Shown piece by piece: positions 1 to 6,841 of a DNA stretch of 6,841 nt. Within the stretch, counting starts at the first letter, position 1, and every line of letters begins with the position of its first letter. The notes below the pieces were generated by a model. It did not search any database, had not been told where the DNA came from, and saw nothing but the letters and a program-made list of their open reading frames with translations. The position numbers and the translations under genes are program-made. The stretch is from an uncultured Muribaculaceae bacterium (lineage in GTDB: Bacteria > Bacillota_I > Bacilli_A > RF39 > UBA660): contig CAZJTX010000014.1 in assembly GCA_964549115.1 (NCBI GenBank), positions 1 through 6,841 of the forward strand. Direction: 5' to 3'.

Positions 1-2
1 CT

Positions 3-65
3 CTTTCCTCTGAACTCTCTGTGTCAGGATCGGGCCACTGGAATGATCCATATATAGTAGAATAA
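3..65 (+). CDS. Possible 3' end of an upstream + strand ORF, truncated by the window start; candidate tail of the DGR target (variable) protein
   Basis: Frame 3 is open from the window edge to TAA at 63-65 (..LSSELSVSGSGHWNDPYIVE*). The first ~50 nt are much GC-richer than the surrounding intergenic DNA. A hairpin plus T-tract follows at 99-152. Aligning 3-14 to the DNA just after the TR (356-367) keeps the TR reading frame in register with this frame. Frame 1 is also open, to TAG at 55-57, so the frame choice is tentative. Confidence 0.3.
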   Translation, partial: LSSELSVSGSGHWNDPYIVE

Positions 66-98
66 TAAGTATAGAGAAAGCCTATATATCTAAACAAT

Positions 99-152
99 CT
101 CACTTTGACTCCTCAAAGTGAGCACGAAAGTGTTTCTTTGTTTCTTTCTTTG
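99..152 (+). terminator. Candidate intrinsic terminator: perfect 10-bp hairpin, GAAA-loop mini-hairpin, then a T-rich tract
   Basis: 99-108 ctcactttga pairs perfectly with 113-122 tcaaagtgag (loop ctcc). 123-132 is cac-gaaa-gtg. It is followed directly by tttctttgtttctttcttt (133-151). The position fits termination of a + strand gene ending near 65. Confidence 0.4.
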
Positions 153-180
153 TTAAAAGAAAGAAAAGGTTTAAATTTTC

Positions 181-209
181 TTGACAAAATAAAAATATTT
201 TGATAATTT
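181..209 (+). promoter_or_regulatory. Candidate sigma-A type promoter with extended -10, driving the TR-avd-RT transcript
   Basis: TTGACA at 181-186, a 17-nt spacer, then TG (201-202)-a-TAATTT (204-209). The hexamer matches TATAAT at positions 1, 2 and 6. The predicted start near 215-218 lies just 5' of the TR candidate. Confidence 0.5.
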
Positions 210-226
210 AAAATTGCATCGGAGAG

Positions 227-355
227 ATGCTGGGATATGTTACTATGGTGTCGCCGTATAACGTAAATACTAATAACGCTAACGAGTTTCACTTGAATTC
301 GTCCGGCACTGTGAATAACAACAATGTGAACAATACAAATGGCGTGCGTCCCGTA
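227..355 (+). repeat. DGR template repeat (TR) candidate; boundaries approximate because no VR is available to align
   Basis: About 42% GC by hand count, in a locus that is far more AT-rich. The region is non-coding, but in one frame it reads (M)LGYVTMVSPYNVNTNNANEFHLNSSGTVNNNNVNNTNGVRPV. That frame holds 13 AAY codons over 260-340, and 26 of ~39 adenines sit in them. It ends with G-V-R-P-V, like the G-x-R-x-V ends of C-type-lectin-fold VRs. The GC-rich element ggcgtgcgtcccg (341-353) lies at the 3' end. Confidence 0.65.
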
Positions 356-542
356 TTTTCCTTTTAAACAATGGATGATAACTCCATAACATAGTTTATT
401 AGAGAGTGAAAGTTAGGGATCAGAAGAAAGGAAACAAACATAGTCCATGGCTTAGTCCTAAAAACGGAAGGATATATAATTACTTTGGCTTAGTAAATAA
501 TTGAAAAGTCGATACTAATTATGTCCTTTTTTAAGGAAATTT

Positions 543-890
543 ATGGAAAAATTTCAAATTTTTAGAAAAAGTCAATCTTTGTTTCAATACATAAGAAGAT
601 ATGTAATTATAAGCATTCCTAAAATACATAGTACTTATAGATTGAAATTAGACGAATATTTAATTTTATTAAACGAAAACATAATAAAGGCAAACTTGAA
701 TGTTAAAAATGTTAGAATAAGAGAAAAGTATCAAAAAGAAGCCCTATCTAATATTGCCATGATAGAATTGCTAATTAGAATATTAAAAGAAGAGGGAATA
801 ATAAGCGGTAAGAGATTTTTGGTTGTAGTCAATAATTTAAATGAAATAAACAAAATGTTGTATGGGTGGATTAATGAAAAGGAAAGGTAA
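543..890 (+). CDS. avd: Accessory variability determinant (Avd)-like four-helix-bundle protein (23S rRNA-intervening-sequence protein family)
   Basis: 115 aa, predicted all-helical and basic. The S-I-P-K-I-H-x-x-Y-R segment and the C-terminal E-I-N-K-M-L-Y-G-W-I resemble patterns I recall in Avd/four-helix-bundle proteins. An aagga RBS lies at 533-537. The ORF sits immediately upstream of the RT gene and overlaps it. Confidence 0.7.
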   Translation: MEKFQIFRKSQSLFQYIRRYVIISIPKIHSTYRLKLDEYLILLNENIIKANLNVKNVRIREKYQKEALSNIAMIELLIRILKEEGIISGKRFLVVVNNLNEINKMLYGWINEKER

Positions 891-2148
891 TTATTATTAC
901 GACAACTTAAATTATACAAATATACACAAAAGTTATAAAAATGTTAGAAAAACTTGTAAAAACAAACAAAAGTTGAATAATTATTTAATAAATGAATCAC
1001 TTAATTTATTTGGTATTTTAGATGGTTTGTATAATAAAAATTATAATTTTTATAATTATAATATATTCTTAATAAAAGAACCAAAATATAGAATAGTAAT
1101 GAGTGAGGAAATTAGTGATAAGGTTGTAAGTTATTTTATAAGCGAGCATTTATTAAGACCTTATATAGAACCAAGTTTGTTATATAGCAATGTCGCAACA
1201 AGAAAGAATAAAGGTTCTAGTCTTGCTTATAATTTATTTGAAAAGTATGTGAAAAGGATAGGTTTGAGTAAAGAAATTTATGTACTTAGATTAGACATTT
1301 CTAAGTATTTTTATAATATAGACCACAAAATATTAATAAATAAAATAAAAAGAAAAATAAAGGATAAAGATGTAATTGATTTAATAACAAAATTAATAAA
1401 AAGAACTGATAGCAAGTATGTAAATAAAAAAATAAATTATATAAAAGAAAGCGAAGCAAAACATATAAAGAAAAAAAACATAAAAGAAAGCGAGAAGAAA
1501 AAAAGAATAGAAGAAATTAGTAAAATACCCACATATGATGCTGGTAAAGGGTTAAGTATAGGAAATATAACTTCTCAATTATTGGCAGTCTTTTATTTAA
1601 ACGATATAGATCATTATATAAAAGAAAATCTTAAACATAAGCATTACATAAGATATATGGATGATTTAATAATATTGTCTTCGGATAAAGAAAAACTTAC
1701 AAAAGATTTTGTTAAAATAAGTAGTAAAATAAAAGAAGAAAAATTATCAATAAATCCTAAAAGTAAAATTCATGTTTTAAATAAAGGTTTTACTTTTTTA
1801 GGATATACATATAATATAAAGGATAATAGATTAATAAAAAGAGTTAAAAACATTAATAAAAGGAAGATTAGGAAGAAATTGTCGTATTTAAAATGTAATG
1901 ATTACAACAAATATTTTTTGTCGTTAATTAGTTATAAAGGATATATAAAGGGGATATATAATTTAGATAAAGAGTATGAGTTTTTATGTAATGTGTATAG
2001 TGATTATTATATATATTTTATAAACAAAGATGTTCTAAAAAGAAATAATAATAAAAAATTTAAAGAGTTATCAAATAAAGATAGGTATATAATATTAAGA
2101 GATAACAAGGTACTAATAAATAATGTGTTTGACACCGATATTAATTAA
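862..2148 (+). CDS. Reverse transcriptase, DGR class
   Basis: Motif 1 is EPKYRIV. Motif 2 is SDKVV...L. Motif 2a is ATRKNKGS. Motif 3 is LRLDISKYFYNIDH (1285-1326). Motif 4 is GLSIGNITSQ (IGNITSQ at 1558-1578): the I/L-G-x-x-x-S-Q form is DGR-type, whereas retron and group II RTs have Q-G-x-x-x-S-P. Motif 5 is YIRYMDDLIIL (YMDD at 1654-1665). Motif 7 is GFTFLGYTY. The start is ATG 862 or ATG 874, and both overlap the end of avd. Confidence 0.88.
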   Translation: MGGLMKRKGNYYYDNLNYTNIHKSYKNVRKTCKNKQKLNNYLINESLNLFGILDGLYNKNYNFYNYNIFLIKEPKYRIVMSEEISDKVVSYFISEHLLRPYIEPSLLYSNVATRKNKGSSLAYNLFEKYVKRIGLSKEIYVLRLDISKYFYNIDHKILINKIKRKIKDKDVIDLITKLIKRTDSKYVNKKINYIKESEAKHIKKKNIKESEKKKRIEEISKIPTYDAGKGLSIGNITSQLLAVFYLNDIDHYIKENLKHKHYIRYMDDLIILSSDKEKLTKDFVKISSKIKEEKLSINPKSKIHVLNKGFTFLGYTYNIKDNRLIKRVKNINKRKIRKKLSYLKCNDYNKYFLSLISYKGYIKGIYNLDKEYEFLCNVYSDYYIYFINKDVLKRNNNKKFKELSNKDRYIILRDNKVLINNVFDTDIN

Positions 2149-2157
2149 TAATATAAT
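2129..2157 (+). promoter_or_regulatory. Consensus sigma-A promoter of the rpmH operon
   Basis: TTGACA (2129-2134), an exact 17-nt spacer, then TATAAT (2152-2157). It lies ~25 nt upstream of the rpmH ATG and is followed by an AAGGAGG RBS (2171-2177). It overlaps the final RT codons (..NVFDTDIN*). Confidence 0.65.
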
Positions 2158-2181
2158 GATTATTAGCAAGAAGGAGGTCTC

Positions 2182-2310
2182 ATGAAAAGAACTTGGCAAC
2201 CTAATAAAAGAAAAACGAAAAAGAATCATGGTTTTTTTGCTAGAAAGAAAAGTAAATCAGGAATACTTAATCGTAGACGTAAAAAAGGAAGAAAAAGACT
2301 AACACATTAA
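2182..2310 (+). CDS. rpmH: 50S ribosomal protein L34
   Basis: Not in the ORF track. Hand translation gives [42 protein letters not shown] (42 aa), which has the canonical L34 pattern MKRT(W/F/Y)QP..rkr.k.HGF..R. There is a strong AAGGAGG RBS, and the position upstream of rnpA is the conserved one. Confidence 0.92.
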
Positions 2311-2332
2311 AAATGTGTGTTTTTTATATATA

Positions 2333-2656
2333 ATGAAAAGATATGAAACTGTAAAGAGCAAAAGAGATTTTGATTATATTATAAAAAATGGAAAGAAATA
2401 TCAAAATAAGCATATTTCTGTTTTTGAATTAAAAAATAAGGAAGAAATAGCATTGTTTGGAATAGCGGTGTCTAAAAAGCTAGGTAATGCGGTATTTAGA
2501 AATAAAAAAAGAAGACAAATAAGATGTATTCTTGATAAATATAAGTATGAGTTTAAAAATAAGCATAGTTATATTATAATATTAAAAGAGGCCGGATCTA
2601 AAATTTCATATAAAATCTTAGAAGAAAGCATCAAAAATTTATTAAAAGAGGTCTAA
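2333..2656 (+). CDS. rnpA: Ribonuclease P protein component
   Basis: Contains the RNR motif region VSKKLGNAVFRNKKRRQIR and the N-terminal KSKRDFDYI. Size is ~107 aa and the rpmH-rnpA synteny is conserved. The track ORF starts at GTG 2315, but the ATG at 2333 (MKRYETVK..) is the more likely start. Confidence 0.85.
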   Translation: MKRYETVKSKRDFDYIIKNGKKYQNKHISVFELKNKEEIALFGIAVSKKLGNAVFRNKKRRQIRCILDKYKYEFKNKHSYIIILKEAGSKISYKILEESIKNLLKEV

Positions 2657-2657
2657 A

Positions 2658-3656
2658 ATGAATAAAAAAAAGATAATTATATTAATAATAGCTATGTTAT
2701 TTATAACCGGTTGTGGTAATAAAAAATATATTATTGATGATAAGGGAAATCCTTTAAAATATGAGGCGACAGGGCAAATGTTGGAAAATAACCTGTTATG
2801 TAGTCCAAGTAAAGATACTGAAGTATATAAATTATATAAAGAAAACGAAAAGCAATTAGTTTTTAAACTAGAAGAATTACCTAATTGTAATAATTTTAAA
2901 TTATCTTCAACAAAATCAAAGTCAATTTGGGAACACGTAGTAGTTAAAAGTACTGCATGGGTAATATTAAAAATAGGTAAAATTGTTAAAAATTTAGGTG
3001 TTTCTGTAATGATAGTAGGACTATTAATTAGAATTATATTAATGCCTCTTCAGATAAAAACTACTAAACAATCACAAAATATGAAGAAGGCAACGCCTGA
3101 AATACAAAAAATTGAAAGAAAATATAAGGATAAAACAGATAATGAATCAATGATGGCTAAGAGTCAAGAAATGATGTTGGTTTATAAAAAATATAAAGTA
3201 AACCCTGTATCAAGTTGTATAACAGCGTTTATTCAATTACCAATATTTTTAGCGTTTTTGCAGGCTATTTATAGAATACCTGTTATTTATGAACAAAAAT
3301 TATTGGGTTGGAATTTAGGTATGACCCCATCAGTTGGAATATCTAAGGGACATTATTCATATATCGCATTATTAATACTAATAATATTATCAACTTTCTT
3401 CTCGTTTAAATATTCTATGAGTCAAACTCCTCAAATGGGAGATGATAGTAAAAAACAAACAAATACAATGTTATATGTAATGATGGGTATAATAACATTA
3501 GCGTCGTTTAGTTTACCAACCGCAATAGCGTTATATTGGATTGTAACTAATGCATTTATATCGGTACAAACATTTATAACTACAAAGTTATTAGATGATA
3601 ATAAAAAAAGTAAAGTAAAAGTTAAAGTAGGTAAAAAAAATGGAAAAAATAAGTAG
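2658..3656 (+). CDS. yidC: Membrane protein insertase YidC (Gram-positive lipoprotein type, SpoIIIJ/YqjG-like)
   Basis: The signal peptide has a lipobox, ..LFITGC, with Cys19. Conserved insertase segments are present: PLQIKTTKQSQNMKKATPEIQKIERKYK, VNPVSSCITAFIQLPIF and LPTAIALYWIVTNAFISVQ. The C-terminal tail is lysine-rich. An aagagg RBS lies at 2646-2651. Confidence 0.9.
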   Translation: MNKKKIIILIIAMLFITGCGNKKYIIDDKGNPLKYEATGQMLENNLLCSPSKDTEVYKLYKENEKQLVFKLEELPNCNNFKLSSTKSKSIWEHVVVKSTAWVILKIGKIVKNLGVSVMIVGLLIRIILMPLQIKTTKQSQNMKKATPEIQKIERKYKDKTDNESMMAKSQEMMLVYKKYKVNPVSSCITAFIQLPIFLAFLQAIYRIPVIYEQKLLGWNLGMTPSVGISKGHYSYIALLILIILSTFFSFKYSMSQTPQMGDDSKKQTNTMLYVMMGIITLASFSLPTAIALYWIVTNAFISVQTFITTKLLDDNKKSKVKVKVGKKNGKNK

Positions 3657-4251
3657 TGAAGGTAAAACGTTTGAAGAGGCAATTGATCAATTAAAAGAAA
3701 AAGGTTATGTAGAAGAAGAATATGTATTTACTAAAGAAGAATCAACAAGTGGATTATTTAAACATAAAAATATAACACTTAATGCATATAAAAAAGAAGA
3801 TATATATGATGCGATAAAATCTTTTTTAAAAGACGTTATAGAAAATTTAGGACTAGAAGTGTCATTTGAAGTTAAAACTAAAGACGAAAGAACAACCATT
3901 CAAATATATACCGACAATAATTCTTTAATTATTGGTAGGGGCGGAAATACTATAAAAGCTTTAGAAACGTTAGTTAAACAGTATATATATAATTTAATAG
4001 GAGTTAATTTTATAGTTTCGTTAGATGTTGAAAACTATAAAGGTAAAAAACAAAAAAGAATTATAAGAATGGCTAAAGATTTAGCTAGAGAAGTTTCAAG
4101 AACAAAAATTAGAGTAGAGATGGATAGTATGAATTCTTTTGAAAGAAGGATAGTTCATAGTGCTCTATCTAATTATAGAGGAGTATCAACAAAGAGTGAA
4201 GGGGAAGAACCAAATAGGTATGTAGTAATCATGCCTGAAGATAAGGATTAA
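3640..4251 (+). CDS. jag: Jag/KhpB RNA-binding protein (Jag_N + KH + R3H domains)
   Basis: The N-terminus EGKTFEEAIDQLKEKG is Jag_N-like. A KH GxxG motif is present (IIGRGGNTIKALETLV), as is an R3H region (SFERRIVHSAL). The position between yidC and mnmE is conserved. It overlaps yidC by 17 nt. Confidence 0.85.
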   Translation: MEKISSEGKTFEEAIDQLKEKGYVEEEYVFTKEESTSGLFKHKNITLNAYKKEDIYDAIKSFLKDVIENLGLEVSFEVKTKDERTTIQIYTDNNSLIIGRGGNTIKALETLVKQYIYNLIGVNFIVSLDVENYKGKKQKRIIRMAKDLAREVSRTKIRVEMDSMNSFERRIVHSALSNYRGVSTKSEGEEPNRYVVIMPEDKD

Positions 4252-4252
4252 T

Positions 4253-5596
4253 ATGGAAGACACAATATGTGCAATCAGTTCAGGTATAGGGGAAGGTGCT
4301 ATATCAATAATAAGAGTGTCTGGTAAAGACGCTTTTTTAATCGTGAATAAAATTTTTAATAAAAATATATTAAAAGAAAAAAGTCATACTATTAAATATG
4401 GCTATATTATGGATGGAAAAAAAGTTGTAGACGAAGTTTTATTAATGATGATGAGATCACCAAAAACATATACAACGGAGGATATAATAGAAATTAATTG
4501 TCATGGTGGACACACAGTAGCAACCAAAGTATTAGAATTATTATTAAATAATGGATGTAGATTAGCTGAAGCAGGTGAGTTTACTAAAAGAGCATTTTTA
4601 AACGGACGAATTGACTTAACAAAAGCTGAAGCAGTTAATGATTTAATAAGTGCTAAAACAGATAAAGCAAGAGAACTTGCTATAAACACAGTAAGGGGTA
4701 ATTTATATAATAAAATTAATAATTTAAGAAACAGTATTGTTAAAATAATAGCTAACATAGAGGTTAATATAGATTATCCGGAATATAAAGATGAAGTAGA
4801 AGTAACTCACGATATGATTAAAACTCATTTAAAAGAAGTAAAAGAAGAACTTACAAACATAGTAAAAGAATCTAATGAATCGGATATCGTTAGATATGGA
4901 TTAAATGTAGCAATAGTGGGTAAACCTAATGTGGGAAAGAGTAGTTTGCTTAATATTTTAATAGATGAAGAAAAAGCAATTGTAACGGACATACCAGGTA
5001 CAACAAGGGATGTAGTAGAAGGTTCTATTATATTAGAGGGAATACCTATTAACTTTTTAGATACCGCAGGATTAAGAGATACAAAAGACATAGTCGAACA
5101 AATTGGTGTTAAAAAAAGTTATAAAGTAATTGATAAAGCCGACTTAATAATAGTGGTTTTAAATTATAATGAATTATTAACTAAAGAAGAAGAAAAGTTT
5201 ATAAAAGAGTTAGATAATAACAAATTAATTGTTTTTGTTAATAAAGATGACTTAAATAAAAAAATAGACATCAATTTCGATAATACAATATATGGAAATA
5301 CATTGTCGTTAGAGGGTATAAGAGAGTTAAAAAATAAAATAATCGACATGTTTAAATTAAAAGAATTAGTAAATAAAGATATAACTTATTTAAGTAATAT
5401 AAGACAAATAGATTTAATTAATAAAAGTATTAAATCTATTGAAAACGCAATTAAAAGCGAAAAAGAAGGGTTGCCTTTAGATTTAATAGAAATAGATCTT
5501 AAAGAATCATGGAAATATTTAGGTGAATTAACTGGTGAATTTTACGATGAGGAATTAGTTCACGAGTTATTTACTAATTTTTGTTTGGGAAAATAA
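4253..5596 (+). CDS. mnmE: tRNA modification GTPase MnmE (TrmE/ThdF)
   Basis: The N-terminus DTICAISSGIGEGAISIIRVSG is typical. G1 is GKPNVGKSSLLN, G2 is PGTTRD, G3 is DTAG and G4 is NKDD. The diagnostic C-terminal C-L-G-K tetrapeptide is present. Confidence 0.95.
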   Translation: MEDTICAISSGIGEGAISIIRVSGKDAFLIVNKIFNKNILKEKSHTIKYGYIMDGKKVVDEVLLMMMRSPKTYTTEDIIEINCHGGHTVATKVLELLLNNGCRLAEAGEFTKRAFLNGRIDLTKAEAVNDLISAKTDKARELAINTVRGNLYNKINNLRNSIVKIIANIEVNIDYPEYKDEVEVTHDMIKTHLKEVKEELTNIVKESNESDIVRYGLNVAIVGKPNVGKSSLLNILIDEEKAIVTDIPGTTRDVVEGSIILEGIPINFLDTAGLRDTKDIVEQIGVKKSYKVIDKADLIIVVLNYNELLTKEEEKFIKELDNNKLIVFVNKDDLNKKIDINFDNTIYGNTLSLEGIRELKNKIIDMFKLKELVNKDITYLSNIRQIDLINKSIKSIENAIKSEKEGLPLDLIEIDLKESWKYLGELTGEFYDEELVHELFTNFCLGK

Positions 5597-5597
5597 A

Positions 5598-6841
5598 ATG
5601 ATAGATGTAATTGTAGTAGGGGCAGGTCATGCCGGCATAGAAGCAGCACATATAACAGCTAAAATGGGTAAGAAAACCCTCCTTTTAACAATGAATATAA
5701 ACAACATTGCTGATATGGCATGTAATCCTTCAATAGGTGGAACATCTAAAGGAGTAATTGTAAGAGAGGTTGACGCTTTAGGAGGATTAATGGGAAGGGT
5801 AACAGATGTTTCCCATTTTCAAATAAAGATGTTAAACAAGTCTAAAGGCGCAGCAGTAAGGGCCTTACGCGCGCAAGTTGACAAAGTTTTATATCCTAAA
5901 AAAATGTTAGAAGAATTAAACAAAGTGTCAAACTTAGAGTTAAGAGAAGGTAAAGTAGAAGACTTAATTATTGAAGATAAAAAGGTGTTGGGAGTTATTT
6001 TAGATAATGGAGAAAAAATTTATAGCAAAATTGTAATATTAACAACTGGAACTTATACAAAATCTAATATTTTAATTGGAGATGAAAGTATAGAAGAAGG
6101 TCCACATGGTGAAGATAGGTCTAATCATTTAACTGATAACTTAAAAAAAGAAGGTATAAACATTTTAAGACTTAAAACTGGTACTCCTCCTAGAATTAAA
6201 GATTCATCAATTGATTTTACTAATATGATCGTGGAAAAAGGAGACGATGAGTTATATACCTTTAGCTTTGATACAATTCCTAGCTATGATCCTAAAAATC
6301 AAAGAGATTGTTATTTAATATATACACATAAAAAAACTCATGATTTAATTAATGAAAATATAGAAAAAAGCGCTATGTATAGTGGTTTAGTAACCGGCAC
6401 AGGAGCAAGATATTGTCCTTCAATTGAGGATAAGCTTGTAAAGTTTAGCGATAAAGAAAGACATCAAATATTTTTAGAACCAGAAAGTAATTACACTGAT
6501 GAATGGTATTTACAAGGATTTTCTACAAGTTTACCAAGAGACATACAAGAGAAAATGGTACACAGTTTACCAGGTTTAGAAAATGCCGAAATATTAAAGT
6601 ATGCTTACGCTATAGAATATGATGCTATCGATCCAATTCAAATATATCCTAGTTTAGAAAATAAACTTATATCTAATTTATTTACCGCGGGTCAAATAAA
6701 TGGAACAAGTGGATATGAAGAAGCAGCTGGTCAAGGTATAATGGCGGGTATAAATGCTGTATTAAAACTAAATAAAGAAGAACCTTTCATATTAAAAAGA
6801 AGCGAAGCATATATCGGTGTAATGATTGATGACTTAGTAAC
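5598..6841 (+). CDS. mnmG: tRNA uridine 5-carboxymethylaminomethyl modification enzyme MnmG (GidA), N-terminal ~414 codons, runs off the window end
   Basis: Not in the ORF track because it has no stop in the window. The ATG at 5598 lies 1 nt after the mnmE stop. Translation gives MIDVIVVGAGHAGIEAAHITAKMGKKTLLLTMNINNIADMACNPSIGGTSKGVIVREVDALGGLMG.., which has the FAD-binding GxGxxG motif and the canonical MnmG N-terminal signature. The frame stays open to 6841. Confidence 0.95.
   Translation, partial: MIDVIVVGAGHAGIEAAHITAKMGKKTLLLTMNINNIADMACNPSIGGTSKGVIVREVDALGGLMGRVTDVSHFQIKMLNKSKGAAVRALRAQVDKVLYPKKMLEELNKVSNLELREGKVEDLIIEDKKVLGVILDNGEKIYSKIVILTTGTYTKSNILIGDESIEEGPHGEDRSNHLTDNLKKEGINILRLKTGTPPRIKDSSIDFTNMIVEKGDDELYTFSFDTIPSYDPKNQRDCYLIYTHKKTHDLINENIEKSAMYSGLVTGTGARYCPSIEDKLVKFSDKERHQIFLEPESNYTDEWYLQGFSTSLPRDIQEKMVHSLPGLENAEILKYAYAIEYDAIDPIQIYPSLENKLISNLFTAGQINGTSGYEEAAGQGIMAGINAVLKLNKEEPFILKRSEAYIGVMIDDLV

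Follow-up and report, generated by a model that had tools for sequence, protein, structure and literature searches.

An apparently intact chromosomal diversity-generating retroelement in an uncultured low-GC gut Bacilli bacterium

We analysed a stretch of 6,841 nucleotides from an uncultured low-GC gut Bacilli bacterium (contig CAZJTX010000014.1, positions 1 to 6,841), referred to as the window. With high confidence, it carries a complete, chromosomal diversity-generating retroelement (DGR), which lies immediately upstream of rpmH-rnpA-yidC-jag-mnmE-mnmG and would diversify a secreted or membrane-anchored protein. The system is of a known kind, well preserved and apparently intact. Its overall layout is target gene with variable repeat (VR), hairpin, putative promoter, template repeat (TR), spacer, avd and reverse transcriptase (RT) gene, followed by rpmH. 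An earlier note, written from the sequence alone, had proposed a DGR rather than a generic RT. This assignment is borne out by a DGR-type RT, an Avd fold and a TR/VR pair that differs at adenines only.

The last of these is considered first. The two features concerned are:

Positions 245 to 354, + strand: TR core, 110 nt with 35 adenines.
Positions 1 to 65, + strand: 3′ end of the DGR target gene, the C-terminal tail after the VR, in frame 3, with the stop codon at 63 to 65.

About 540 non-coding bases lie 5′ of the 115-aa open reading frame (ORF) of avd and include a GC-richer, AAY-rich segment. The earlier note had placed the TR there, at 227-355. The composition and non-coding nature of this segment were confirmed, but its bounds were not, the TR core being 245-354. 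The GC content of the core is 0.427, compared with 0.264 for the whole window. In the frame of 227-364, 13 of the 46 codons are AAY, and 33 of the 35 TR adenines fall on codon positions 1 or 2; the ORF at 227-367 exists merely through copying of the reading frame of the target. The last 14 nt of the TR (341-354, GGCGTGCGTCCCGT) are GC-rich and identical in TR and VR, resembling an initiation of mutagenic homing (IMH) site, and over the approximately 19 nt beyond them TR and VR are only partly identical.

No VR was found by a repeat search inside the window. The 3′ half of the TR, with A replaced by N, had no match in genome, metagenome and viral contig collections; not even the TR itself was matched, so the source organism is absent from those collections. 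The VR was retrieved by querying a protein collection with the TR peptide joined to the target tail. This query returned one protein of 67 aa, encoded on a metagenomic contig of 599 nt (L093) that is identical to window 1-307 and reaches 164 nt further left, into the VR. The end of the VR is about 5 nt to the left of the first base of the window, and the VR is in frame within the ORF ending at window position 65. Between TR 245-354 and VR (L093 50-159) there are 20 mismatches, all 20 at TR adenines (hypergeometric P 7e-13; 19/19 if the TR of the L093 strain has T at 308). The changes are A>T in 11, A>G in 6 and A>C in 3 cases, each at codon position 1 or 2. The adenine-only partner anticipated by the earlier note does exist.

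The right part of L093 departs from the window. Past window position 345 (L093 470-599 corresponds to window 306-345 and then diverges) the contig encodes a second, paralogous target-type tail, VSLSTIASVSGFGQWNDPYVVQTD with a stop codon, and not the spacer. The TR adenines before this junction are unmutated, and a search with the second tail found only P0121 and no other protein with such a tail. The junction may have arisen in assembly, as a chimera of the TR with a second target's VR that is barely diversified, or it may reflect true recombination between TR and VR.

The pattern recurs in related loci. When the fetched loci were searched in the manner of DGRscan, 31 relatives yielded TR/VR pairs with adenine-specific differences. 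Of their 568 mismatches, 530 are at TR adenines, the pairs having been selected with a filter of at least 80%, and the VR is upstream of the TR on the RT strand in all 31. One relative, L010, lies on a contig of 386 kb, encodes an RT of 45% identity and has a full DGR whose target ends in ...GLRSSISL-TSDSETTGSGTWNDPYIVS before the stop codon. Window bases 3-65 encode LSSELSVSGSGHWNDPYIVE and a stop codon. Since this peptide is like the tail of L010, the first bases of the window belong to the 3′ tail of the target gene, straight after the VR. The tail is also homologous to the target tails of other relatives (...SG.GT...PY.I and stop). This target side, with the tail at 1-65 and a hairpin at 99-122, had been overlooked in the earlier note.

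Full-length targets in relatives have 420-1050 aa. They start with an N-terminal hydrophobic signal or anchor and continue with variable bodies, some of which contain Ig-like, PKD or Listeria-Bacteroides repeats. A conserved C-terminal domain of about 170 aa follows, with two invariant Cys and then ...YYW.xSP..., the VR and ...G.RPV(I/V)SL, before the short tail SG.GT...PY.I. Six of 19 targets show a weak Pfam match of this domain to DUF6273 (best E 6e-4), which the literature treats as a C-type-lectin-like domain of DGR targets that has the VR at its C-terminal end (PMC11792537, PMC10743442). A profile of the domain had no match in the PDB. Judged by these sequence features, the targets seem to be secreted or anchored proteins of the cell.

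The two protein components of the element overlap:

Positions 543 to 890, + strand: avd, accessory variability determinant, a basic four-helix bundle of 115 aa.
Positions 862 to 2148, + strand: DGR reverse transcriptase, 428 aa; with the likely true start ATG 874, 424 aa.

The DGR-class signature noticed earlier is present in the RT, with SIGNITSQ as motif 4 (aa 232-239, nt 1555-1578) beside the catalytic YMDD (aa 265-268, nt 1654-1665), and Pfam RVT_1 matches with E 2.9e-18. The best solved structure in a PDB search is the Bordetella DGR RT (8ub7, E 1.1e-24), whereas group II, Cas-linked and retron-type RTs reached E 2.8e-8 or worse in the same search. A different class of RT, namely of a group II intron, a retron or an Abi/UG/DRT system, standing by chance beside a small helical ORF, would fit the partial NCBIfam and PADLOC matches to group II, Drt2/3a/5, UG4 and UG17. 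These matches are, however, far below the cut-offs or limited to the palm motifs. The group II model TIGR04416 reaches 87.7 of the 300 bits demanded by its cut-off and aligns with the RT palm alone; for Drt2, Drt3a and Drt5, whose cut-offs are 200-550 bits, the scores are 32-44 bits; and with PADLOC the top match is a generic RT, the UG4 and UG17 matches being partial. An Rfam search at E<=1 gave no RNA family match anywhere in the window, and thus no intron, retron or other RNA family. We therefore set aside a group II intron RT or maturase on its sub-cut-off score, palm-limited alignment and missing intron match. A retron or Abi/UG-DRT defence RT was set aside as well, because all models stay far below their cut-offs, no retron RNA was matched and the neighbours are Avd and rpmH. 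With an adenine-specific TR/VR pair, Avd and a covarying DGR RNA all present, the idea of a non-DGR RT is effectively refuted, and its probability is close to nil.

Homologues of the RT start at the equivalent of ATG 874 (MKRK...), and a Shine-Dalgarno-like GGTGGA lies upstream, so that this is probably the true start. The overlap with avd is 29 nt with the start at 862 and 17 nt with the start at 874. Compared with the Bordetella RT (bRT), a Lys-rich insertion of 54 aa is found between the finger and palm motifs (aa 167-220, window 1360-1522). It is conserved in the clade, with T182, Y186, N188 and I191 invariant. A C-terminal extension of 65 aa (aa ~362-428, window 1945-2148) shows no similarity to MutS_I or another Pfam family, nor does it align with the fusions of RT and MutS_I described below.

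The 115-aa protein overlapping the RT start, described earlier as Avd-like, helical and basic, has a net charge of about +9 and gives full-length matches to Pfam bAvd (E 2.4e-7) and NCBIfam DivGenRetAVD (E 1.7e-7). Among the related loci, 16 of the 21 Avd family members match bAvd and nothing else (best E 2.6e-11). A single-sequence AlphaFold2 (AF2) model has four helices of about 25 residues and a mean predicted local distance difference test (pLDDT) value of 89. With this model, Foldseek retrieved the pentameric four-helix-bundle proteins 2gsc and 2rld and in addition the Bordetella protein bAvd (4dwl), on which the model superposes with template modelling (TM) scores of 0.80/0.86 and a root-mean-square deviation of 1.9 Å. 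The four-helix bundle that the earlier note had suggested for this protein is thus what the model gives.

The RNA from the 5′ leader to avd, apart from the TR, can be divided into the following features:

Positions 232 to 241, + strand: upstream strand of helix P1, GGGATATGTT; proposed analogue of the Bordetella 'cPRT Stop' duplex strand.
Positions 357 to 365, + strand: TR-flank strand of helix P2, TTTCCTTTT; TR and VR diverge from here on.
Positions 366 to 425, + strand: 5′ spacer RNA, a hairpin whose arms begin with CATAAC and end with GTTTAT; candidate Avd-binding stem-loop.
Positions 426 to 436, + strand: P2 primer strand GAAAGGAAA (426-434) and the two-nucleotide linker CA (435-436).
Positions 437 to 446, + strand: spacer strand of helix P1, AACATAGTCC.
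Positions 449 to 465, + strand: short stem-loop GGC-TTA-G(t)CC (449-458) and A-run (460-464); proposed analogue of the stop-element stem-loop and the A-minor adenosines.
Positions 466 to 540, + strand: 3′ spacer, a long interrupted stem around conserved TTAGTA (490-495) and GAAAAG blocks; candidate RT-binding stem.

In the cryo-electron microscopy (cryo-EM) structure of the Bordetella ribonucleoprotein (RNP), a template-primer duplex of TR and spacer is followed by two unpaired nucleotides and an 11-bp duplex with sequence upstream of the TR ('cPRT Stop'). Further on come a short stem-loop, A-minor adenosines, a single-stranded ring and a long RT-binding stem, and cDNA synthesis ends just ahead of the stop duplex. 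At the level of sequence and predicted pairing, the RNA of the window matches this published architecture. The upstream strand of P1 ends 3 nt before the start of TR/VR homology, and 232-241 pairs with 437-446 at 9 of 10 positions. Across 19 loci the mean P1 pairing is 9.6 of 10, a value reached by none of 5000 permutations treated with the same site-selection procedure, and double changes are seen in 7 of the 10 pairs. In P2, 357-365 pairs with 426-434. Here the variable positions 5-9 are paired in 66 of 85 cells from 17 distinct loci (permuted mean 44.2, sd 4.1; 0/20000 permutations reach 66), with double changes in 5 of the 9 pairs. When both helices are taken together in an anchored alignment of 12 loci, 93% of the cells are paired and both-side changes occur in 12 of 19 pairs; none of 500 shuffles reaches any of the measures, and slid controls give 49-59%. 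The two-nucleotide spacing between P2 and P1 is the same as in the Bordetella RNP.

The remaining elements are also found in the clade. Behind every TR comes a conserved spacer, the GAAA(C/T)A core of which is invariant. Hairpins equivalent to 366-425 (ATAAC...GTTAT and variants) were seen by eye in relatives. Stems of differing sequence stand at the position of the short stem-loop in the relatives, each then followed by CTAAA(A/T)A. In the minimum free energy (MFE) folds of 16 out of 20 loci, at least 8 pairs surround the TTAGTA block, in stems that differ in sequence.

Upstream of this RNA a promoter can be read from the sequence:

Positions 181 to 209, + strand: promoter-like site with TTGACA (181-186) and a TG-extended -10 element TGATAAT (201-207).

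The predicted transcription start is at about 214-217, some 15 nt upstream of P1. Several relatives have -10-like hexamers 10-24 nt upstream of the equivalent RNA strand. That 181-209 is the promoter of the DGR transcript is plausible on these grounds. A small hairpin, GCATC-GGAGA-GATGC (216-230), would stand at the 5′ end of the predicted transcript; it is not conserved in L008, the nearest relative with upstream sequence.

A course of events can be proposed by analogy with the Bordetella system. The transcript would start at about 214-217 and comprise a short leader, the TR at 245-354 and a structured spacer of about 190 nt, before running on into avd and RT. The RT and a pentameric Avd would bind the TR-spacer RNA, in which two adjacent helices (232-241:437-446 and 357-365:426-434) would close the TR into a loop. 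A434, at the 3′ end of P2, is the predicted priming nucleotide, from which cDNA would be started at about T356/A355. Synthesis would proceed back through the TR with misincorporation opposite adenines and would stop at P1 (~242-245), a predicted stop that fits the start of TR/VR homology at 245. The cDNA would then replace the VR, and it is here that the result can be read directly, since 20 of the 35 adenine positions, at codon positions 1 or 2, are rewritten in the VR. The rewritten positions lie in the C-type-lectin-like (DUF6273-like) C-terminal domain of the secreted or membrane-anchored protein. The target may be marked by the GC-rich TR/VR block and probably also by the hairpin at 99-122:

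Positions 99 to 122, unstranded: hairpin, a perfect 10-bp inverted repeat with a 4-nt loop, CTCACTTTGA-CTCC-TCAAAGTGAG.

Of 28 loci, 22 have a perfect inverted repeat of 10-15 bp with a 4-nt loop just past the target stop codon, at a distance of 80-122 nt from the VR. These repeats fall into two conserved types, GAAA-ACC(C/T)-TTTC and ATGA-CTC(C/T)-TCAT, and the hairpin of the window (TTGA-CTCC-TCAA), 103 nt from the VR end, belongs to the second. The feature is probably a target-side DNA hairpin or cruciform that acts as a target-recognition element, as judged from the Bordetella counterpart, or alternatively a structure at the 3′ end of the transcript. A plain intrinsic terminator as the sole explanation was set aside, as the hairpins of relatives share loop sequences and lack T-tracts, a T-tract following the hairpin in one locus only. 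Between this hairpin and the promoter there is another repeat, which may be the actual terminator of the target gene:

Positions 141 to 166, unstranded: second perfect inverted repeat of 11 bp, TTTCTTTCTTT-GTTA-AAAGAAAGAAA.

Several points weigh against a complete and functional DGR as described here. The VR is outside the window and comes from a contig of another sample, L093, the right half of which is anomalous, and a single VR variant was recovered. Both Avd profile scores are under the curated cut-offs, and PDB searches by sequence, with the single protein as well as with a profile of 21 members, missed bAvd, which among solved structures was found by fold comparison only. The site at 181-209 was not called by a consensus promoter scan. 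The upstream sites of P1 were picked by complementarity, yet they coincide with a conserved TAGGG anchor. The unconstrained MFE fold of 216-545 recovers neither P1 nor P2, and the fold constrained to them is 5.9 kcal/mol worse; support for both helices thus comes from covariation and not from thermodynamic folding. RNAalifold predicted no pairs on MAFFT alignments of the spacer, owing to variable loop lengths, and RNAduplex was too noisy on long AT-rich flanks. Finally, the published DGR hairpin or cruciform has a 4-nt GRNA loop and lies 4-34 bp downstream of the VR (Guo et al. 2011), whereas the loop at 99-122 is not GRNA and the distance is about 100 nt.

Some of these points could also be understood if the DGR was a fossil, in which the adenine pattern stems from past retrohoming and the target is no longer diversified. 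The one VR sequence, the rpmH-adjacent site unique to the source organism and the aberrant TR junction in L093 would agree with this. On the other hand, avd and RT are intact, YMDD and all clade-invariant RT residues are present, and so is every RNA element conserved in the clade. Exactly the same RT protein is encoded by at least 11 contigs of 2-4 kb each from several independent samples, and the assemblies break repeatedly within TR and VR, as is expected of a heterogeneous repeat. We regard a fossil as unlikely.

The lineage of the element was followed in sequence collections. More than 2000 RT homologues were found in the protein collection, and more than 538 relatives were confirmed in GTDB species genomes, some of them on contigs of 100-450 kb. 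Nearly all belong to uncultured low-GC gut Bacilli; labels include Bacilli, 'Tenericutes', 'Mycoplasma sp. CAG', 'Firmicutes CAG:822', Ca. Onthousia and Ca. Faecimonas. Among 2.9 million viral contigs (IMG/VR) there were only two matches to the RT clade, with 24-25% identity. The near absence from viral contigs together with the many bacterial relatives supports a cellular lineage. It might still be asked whether the element is part of a prophage or mobile element, with a phage receptor-binding protein as target and the phage body upstream of the window. Gut prophage DGRs are the best-known source of DUF6273-type targets, the sequence at hand does not extend upstream of the target gene, and in one relative (L008) a Bro-N gene stands beside the RT. 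This has to be set against the distribution just described, against targets in relatives that combine a signal or anchor with Ig-like or repeat domains and not with tail-fibre domains, and against the core housekeeping genes of matching composition downstream. A prophage origin is accordingly very improbable. The earlier note had spoken of a long-resident cellular DGR, arguing from a composition of avd and RT like that of the flanking housekeeping genes and from the lack of phage genes downstream. Both arguments hold and the cellular part stands, the clade being abundant in bacterial genomes and nearly missing from viral ones. Long residence is not supported, as rpmH directly follows the RT solely in contigs of the source organism and no relative shares this site.

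The order promoter-TR-spacer-avd-RT had been described as unusual. The order itself is correct, but it is the norm of the lineage: where avd was located, the TR precedes it in at least 19 of 21 loci, and two (L027 and L030) have avd before the TR as in Bordetella. The TR and spacer remain contiguous, so the shift of avd is a positional permutation only. The gene order is thus a permutation of the avd position that leaves the TR-spacer RNA module whole, and not a different mechanism.

Additional genes and copies were observed at some loci of the clade. Several RTs (P0028, P0050, P0055 and others, ~505-512 aa) are fused to a C-terminal MutS domain I (MutS_I), and at other loci a separate 121-aa MutS_I gene lies on the opposite strand between TR and avd (L010 8838-9203, minus). 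Wu et al. call this accessory 'MSL', and the element of the window has it neither in fused nor in separate form. Between the MutS_I gene and avd, an ORF of 119 aa with no Pfam match is found in L010 (9324-9683), L011 and L012, and this may be a further accessory gene of a DGR subgroup. Two loci of the RT clade occur in one genome in the case of Firmicutes bacterium CAG:822 (L062 and L074) and of one metagenome-assembled genome (MAG; L022 and L054), and extra tandem TR- or VR-like copies exist at L034, L041 and L074. The double loci and tandem copies suggest multiple targets or duplicated cassettes.

Compared with the DGR of Bordetella phage BPP-1 (mtd/VR - avd - TR - Sp - brt), the RT class (8ub7), the Avd fold (4dwl) and the adenine-specific transfer from TR to VR are alike. 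So are the VR at the 3′ end of a C-type-lectin-type domain and the GC-rich 3′ block of TR and VR. At the RNA level the template-primer duplex, the two-nucleotide linker, a stop duplex of about 10-11 bp, the stem-loop with adenosines and the long 3′ stem correspond. In contrast to the phage-borne BPP-1 element, the element of the window is cellular and has avd downstream and not upstream of TR and spacer. The upstream strand of the stop duplex is part of a non-coding 5′ leader, whereas in BPP-1 it lies in the avd coding sequence. Further differences are the 54-aa insertion and 65-aa C-terminal extension of the RT, a tail of about 20 aa after the VR in the target, and a hairpin about 100 nt from the VR, past the stop codon, with a pyrimidine-rich CTCC loop in place of GRNA. 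The hairpin nevertheless resembles the Bordetella DNA hairpin/cruciform, which has a stem of free sequence and a sequence-specific 4-nt loop and is needed there for target recognition.

With respect to DGR cassettes in general, the main text of Wu et al. 2018 (PMC5758913) names as major architectures with Avd B1 avd-TR-RT, B2 avd-RT-TR and B3 TR-(avd)-RT, also D (with MSL), and gives 48 variants. The components target, TR, avd and RT are the same here, and MSL is found in relatives, separate or fused to the RT. The same-strand order TR-avd-RT is not among the major architectures named in that main text, and the window lacks MSL. Gene order is not treated in the text of Yan et al. 2019. The DGRs known from Faecalibacterium prophages and 'tentaclin' phages (PMC11792537, PMC10743442) likewise come from gut Firmicutes and have the VR at the C-terminal end of a DUF6273-like domain. 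They are phage-borne and diversify receptor-binding proteins, whereas the targets of the window clade look cellular and match DUF6273 weakly. Chromosomal DGRs that act on the C-terminal lectin-fold domain of surface-exposed proteins are known from Legionella pneumophila (ldtA) and Treponema denticola (tvpA) (compare PMC5758913). They differ from the window in host lineage, target family and RT clade, Legionella in addition by its order avd-TR-RT and Treponema by its HRDC accessory.

A more far-reaching interpretation, which we put forward tentatively and consider possible but rather doubtful, is that the RT clade represents a distinct, lineage-wide DGR subtype of small-genome, host-associated Bacilli ('Tenericutes / RF39-like' gut MAGs). 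Such a subtype would combine a self-contained 5′ leader RNA (stop-duplex strand, TR and spacer) ahead of avd-RT with a pyrimidine-loop hairpin for target recognition, about 100 nt past the VR and beyond tail and stop codon. The L093 junction would then stem from true recombination between TR and VR, or from a second target.

Independently of this, the analysis adds a cellular DGR, cleanly resolved into its parts, from gut bacteria of a little-known group. Covariation in a distant lineage backs an RNA architecture so far seen only in the cryo-EM structure from the Bordetella phage, including the two-nucleotide junction of primer and stop helix. The position of avd relative to the TR appears to be mechanistically neutral, provided that TR and spacer are contiguous and that the transcript includes a pairing strand upstream. 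The target-side hairpin, which lies far from the VR and has a conserved loop other than GRNA, offers a testable clue to target recognition by DGRs. A compact TR-spacer module with defined helices could guide the design of DGR-based mutagenesis tools for low-GC Gram-positive hosts.

The genomic surroundings are those of a bacterial chromosome. The window has a GC content of 26%, G exceeds C on the + strand throughout, and all genes are on this strand: the 115-aa ORF, the overlapping RT, then rpmH, rnpA, yidC, jag/khpB, mnmE and the start of mnmG. In Firmicutes the cluster rpmH-rnpA-yidC-jag-mnmE-mnmG usually adjoins the replication origin. A perfect sigma-70 consensus (2129-2157; TTGACA, 17 nt, TATAAT; 12/12 matches) sits in the final codons of the RT and precedes the start of rpmH by 25 nt. 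With this consensus ahead of it, rpmH probably has its own promoter, and co-transcription with the DGR is not required.

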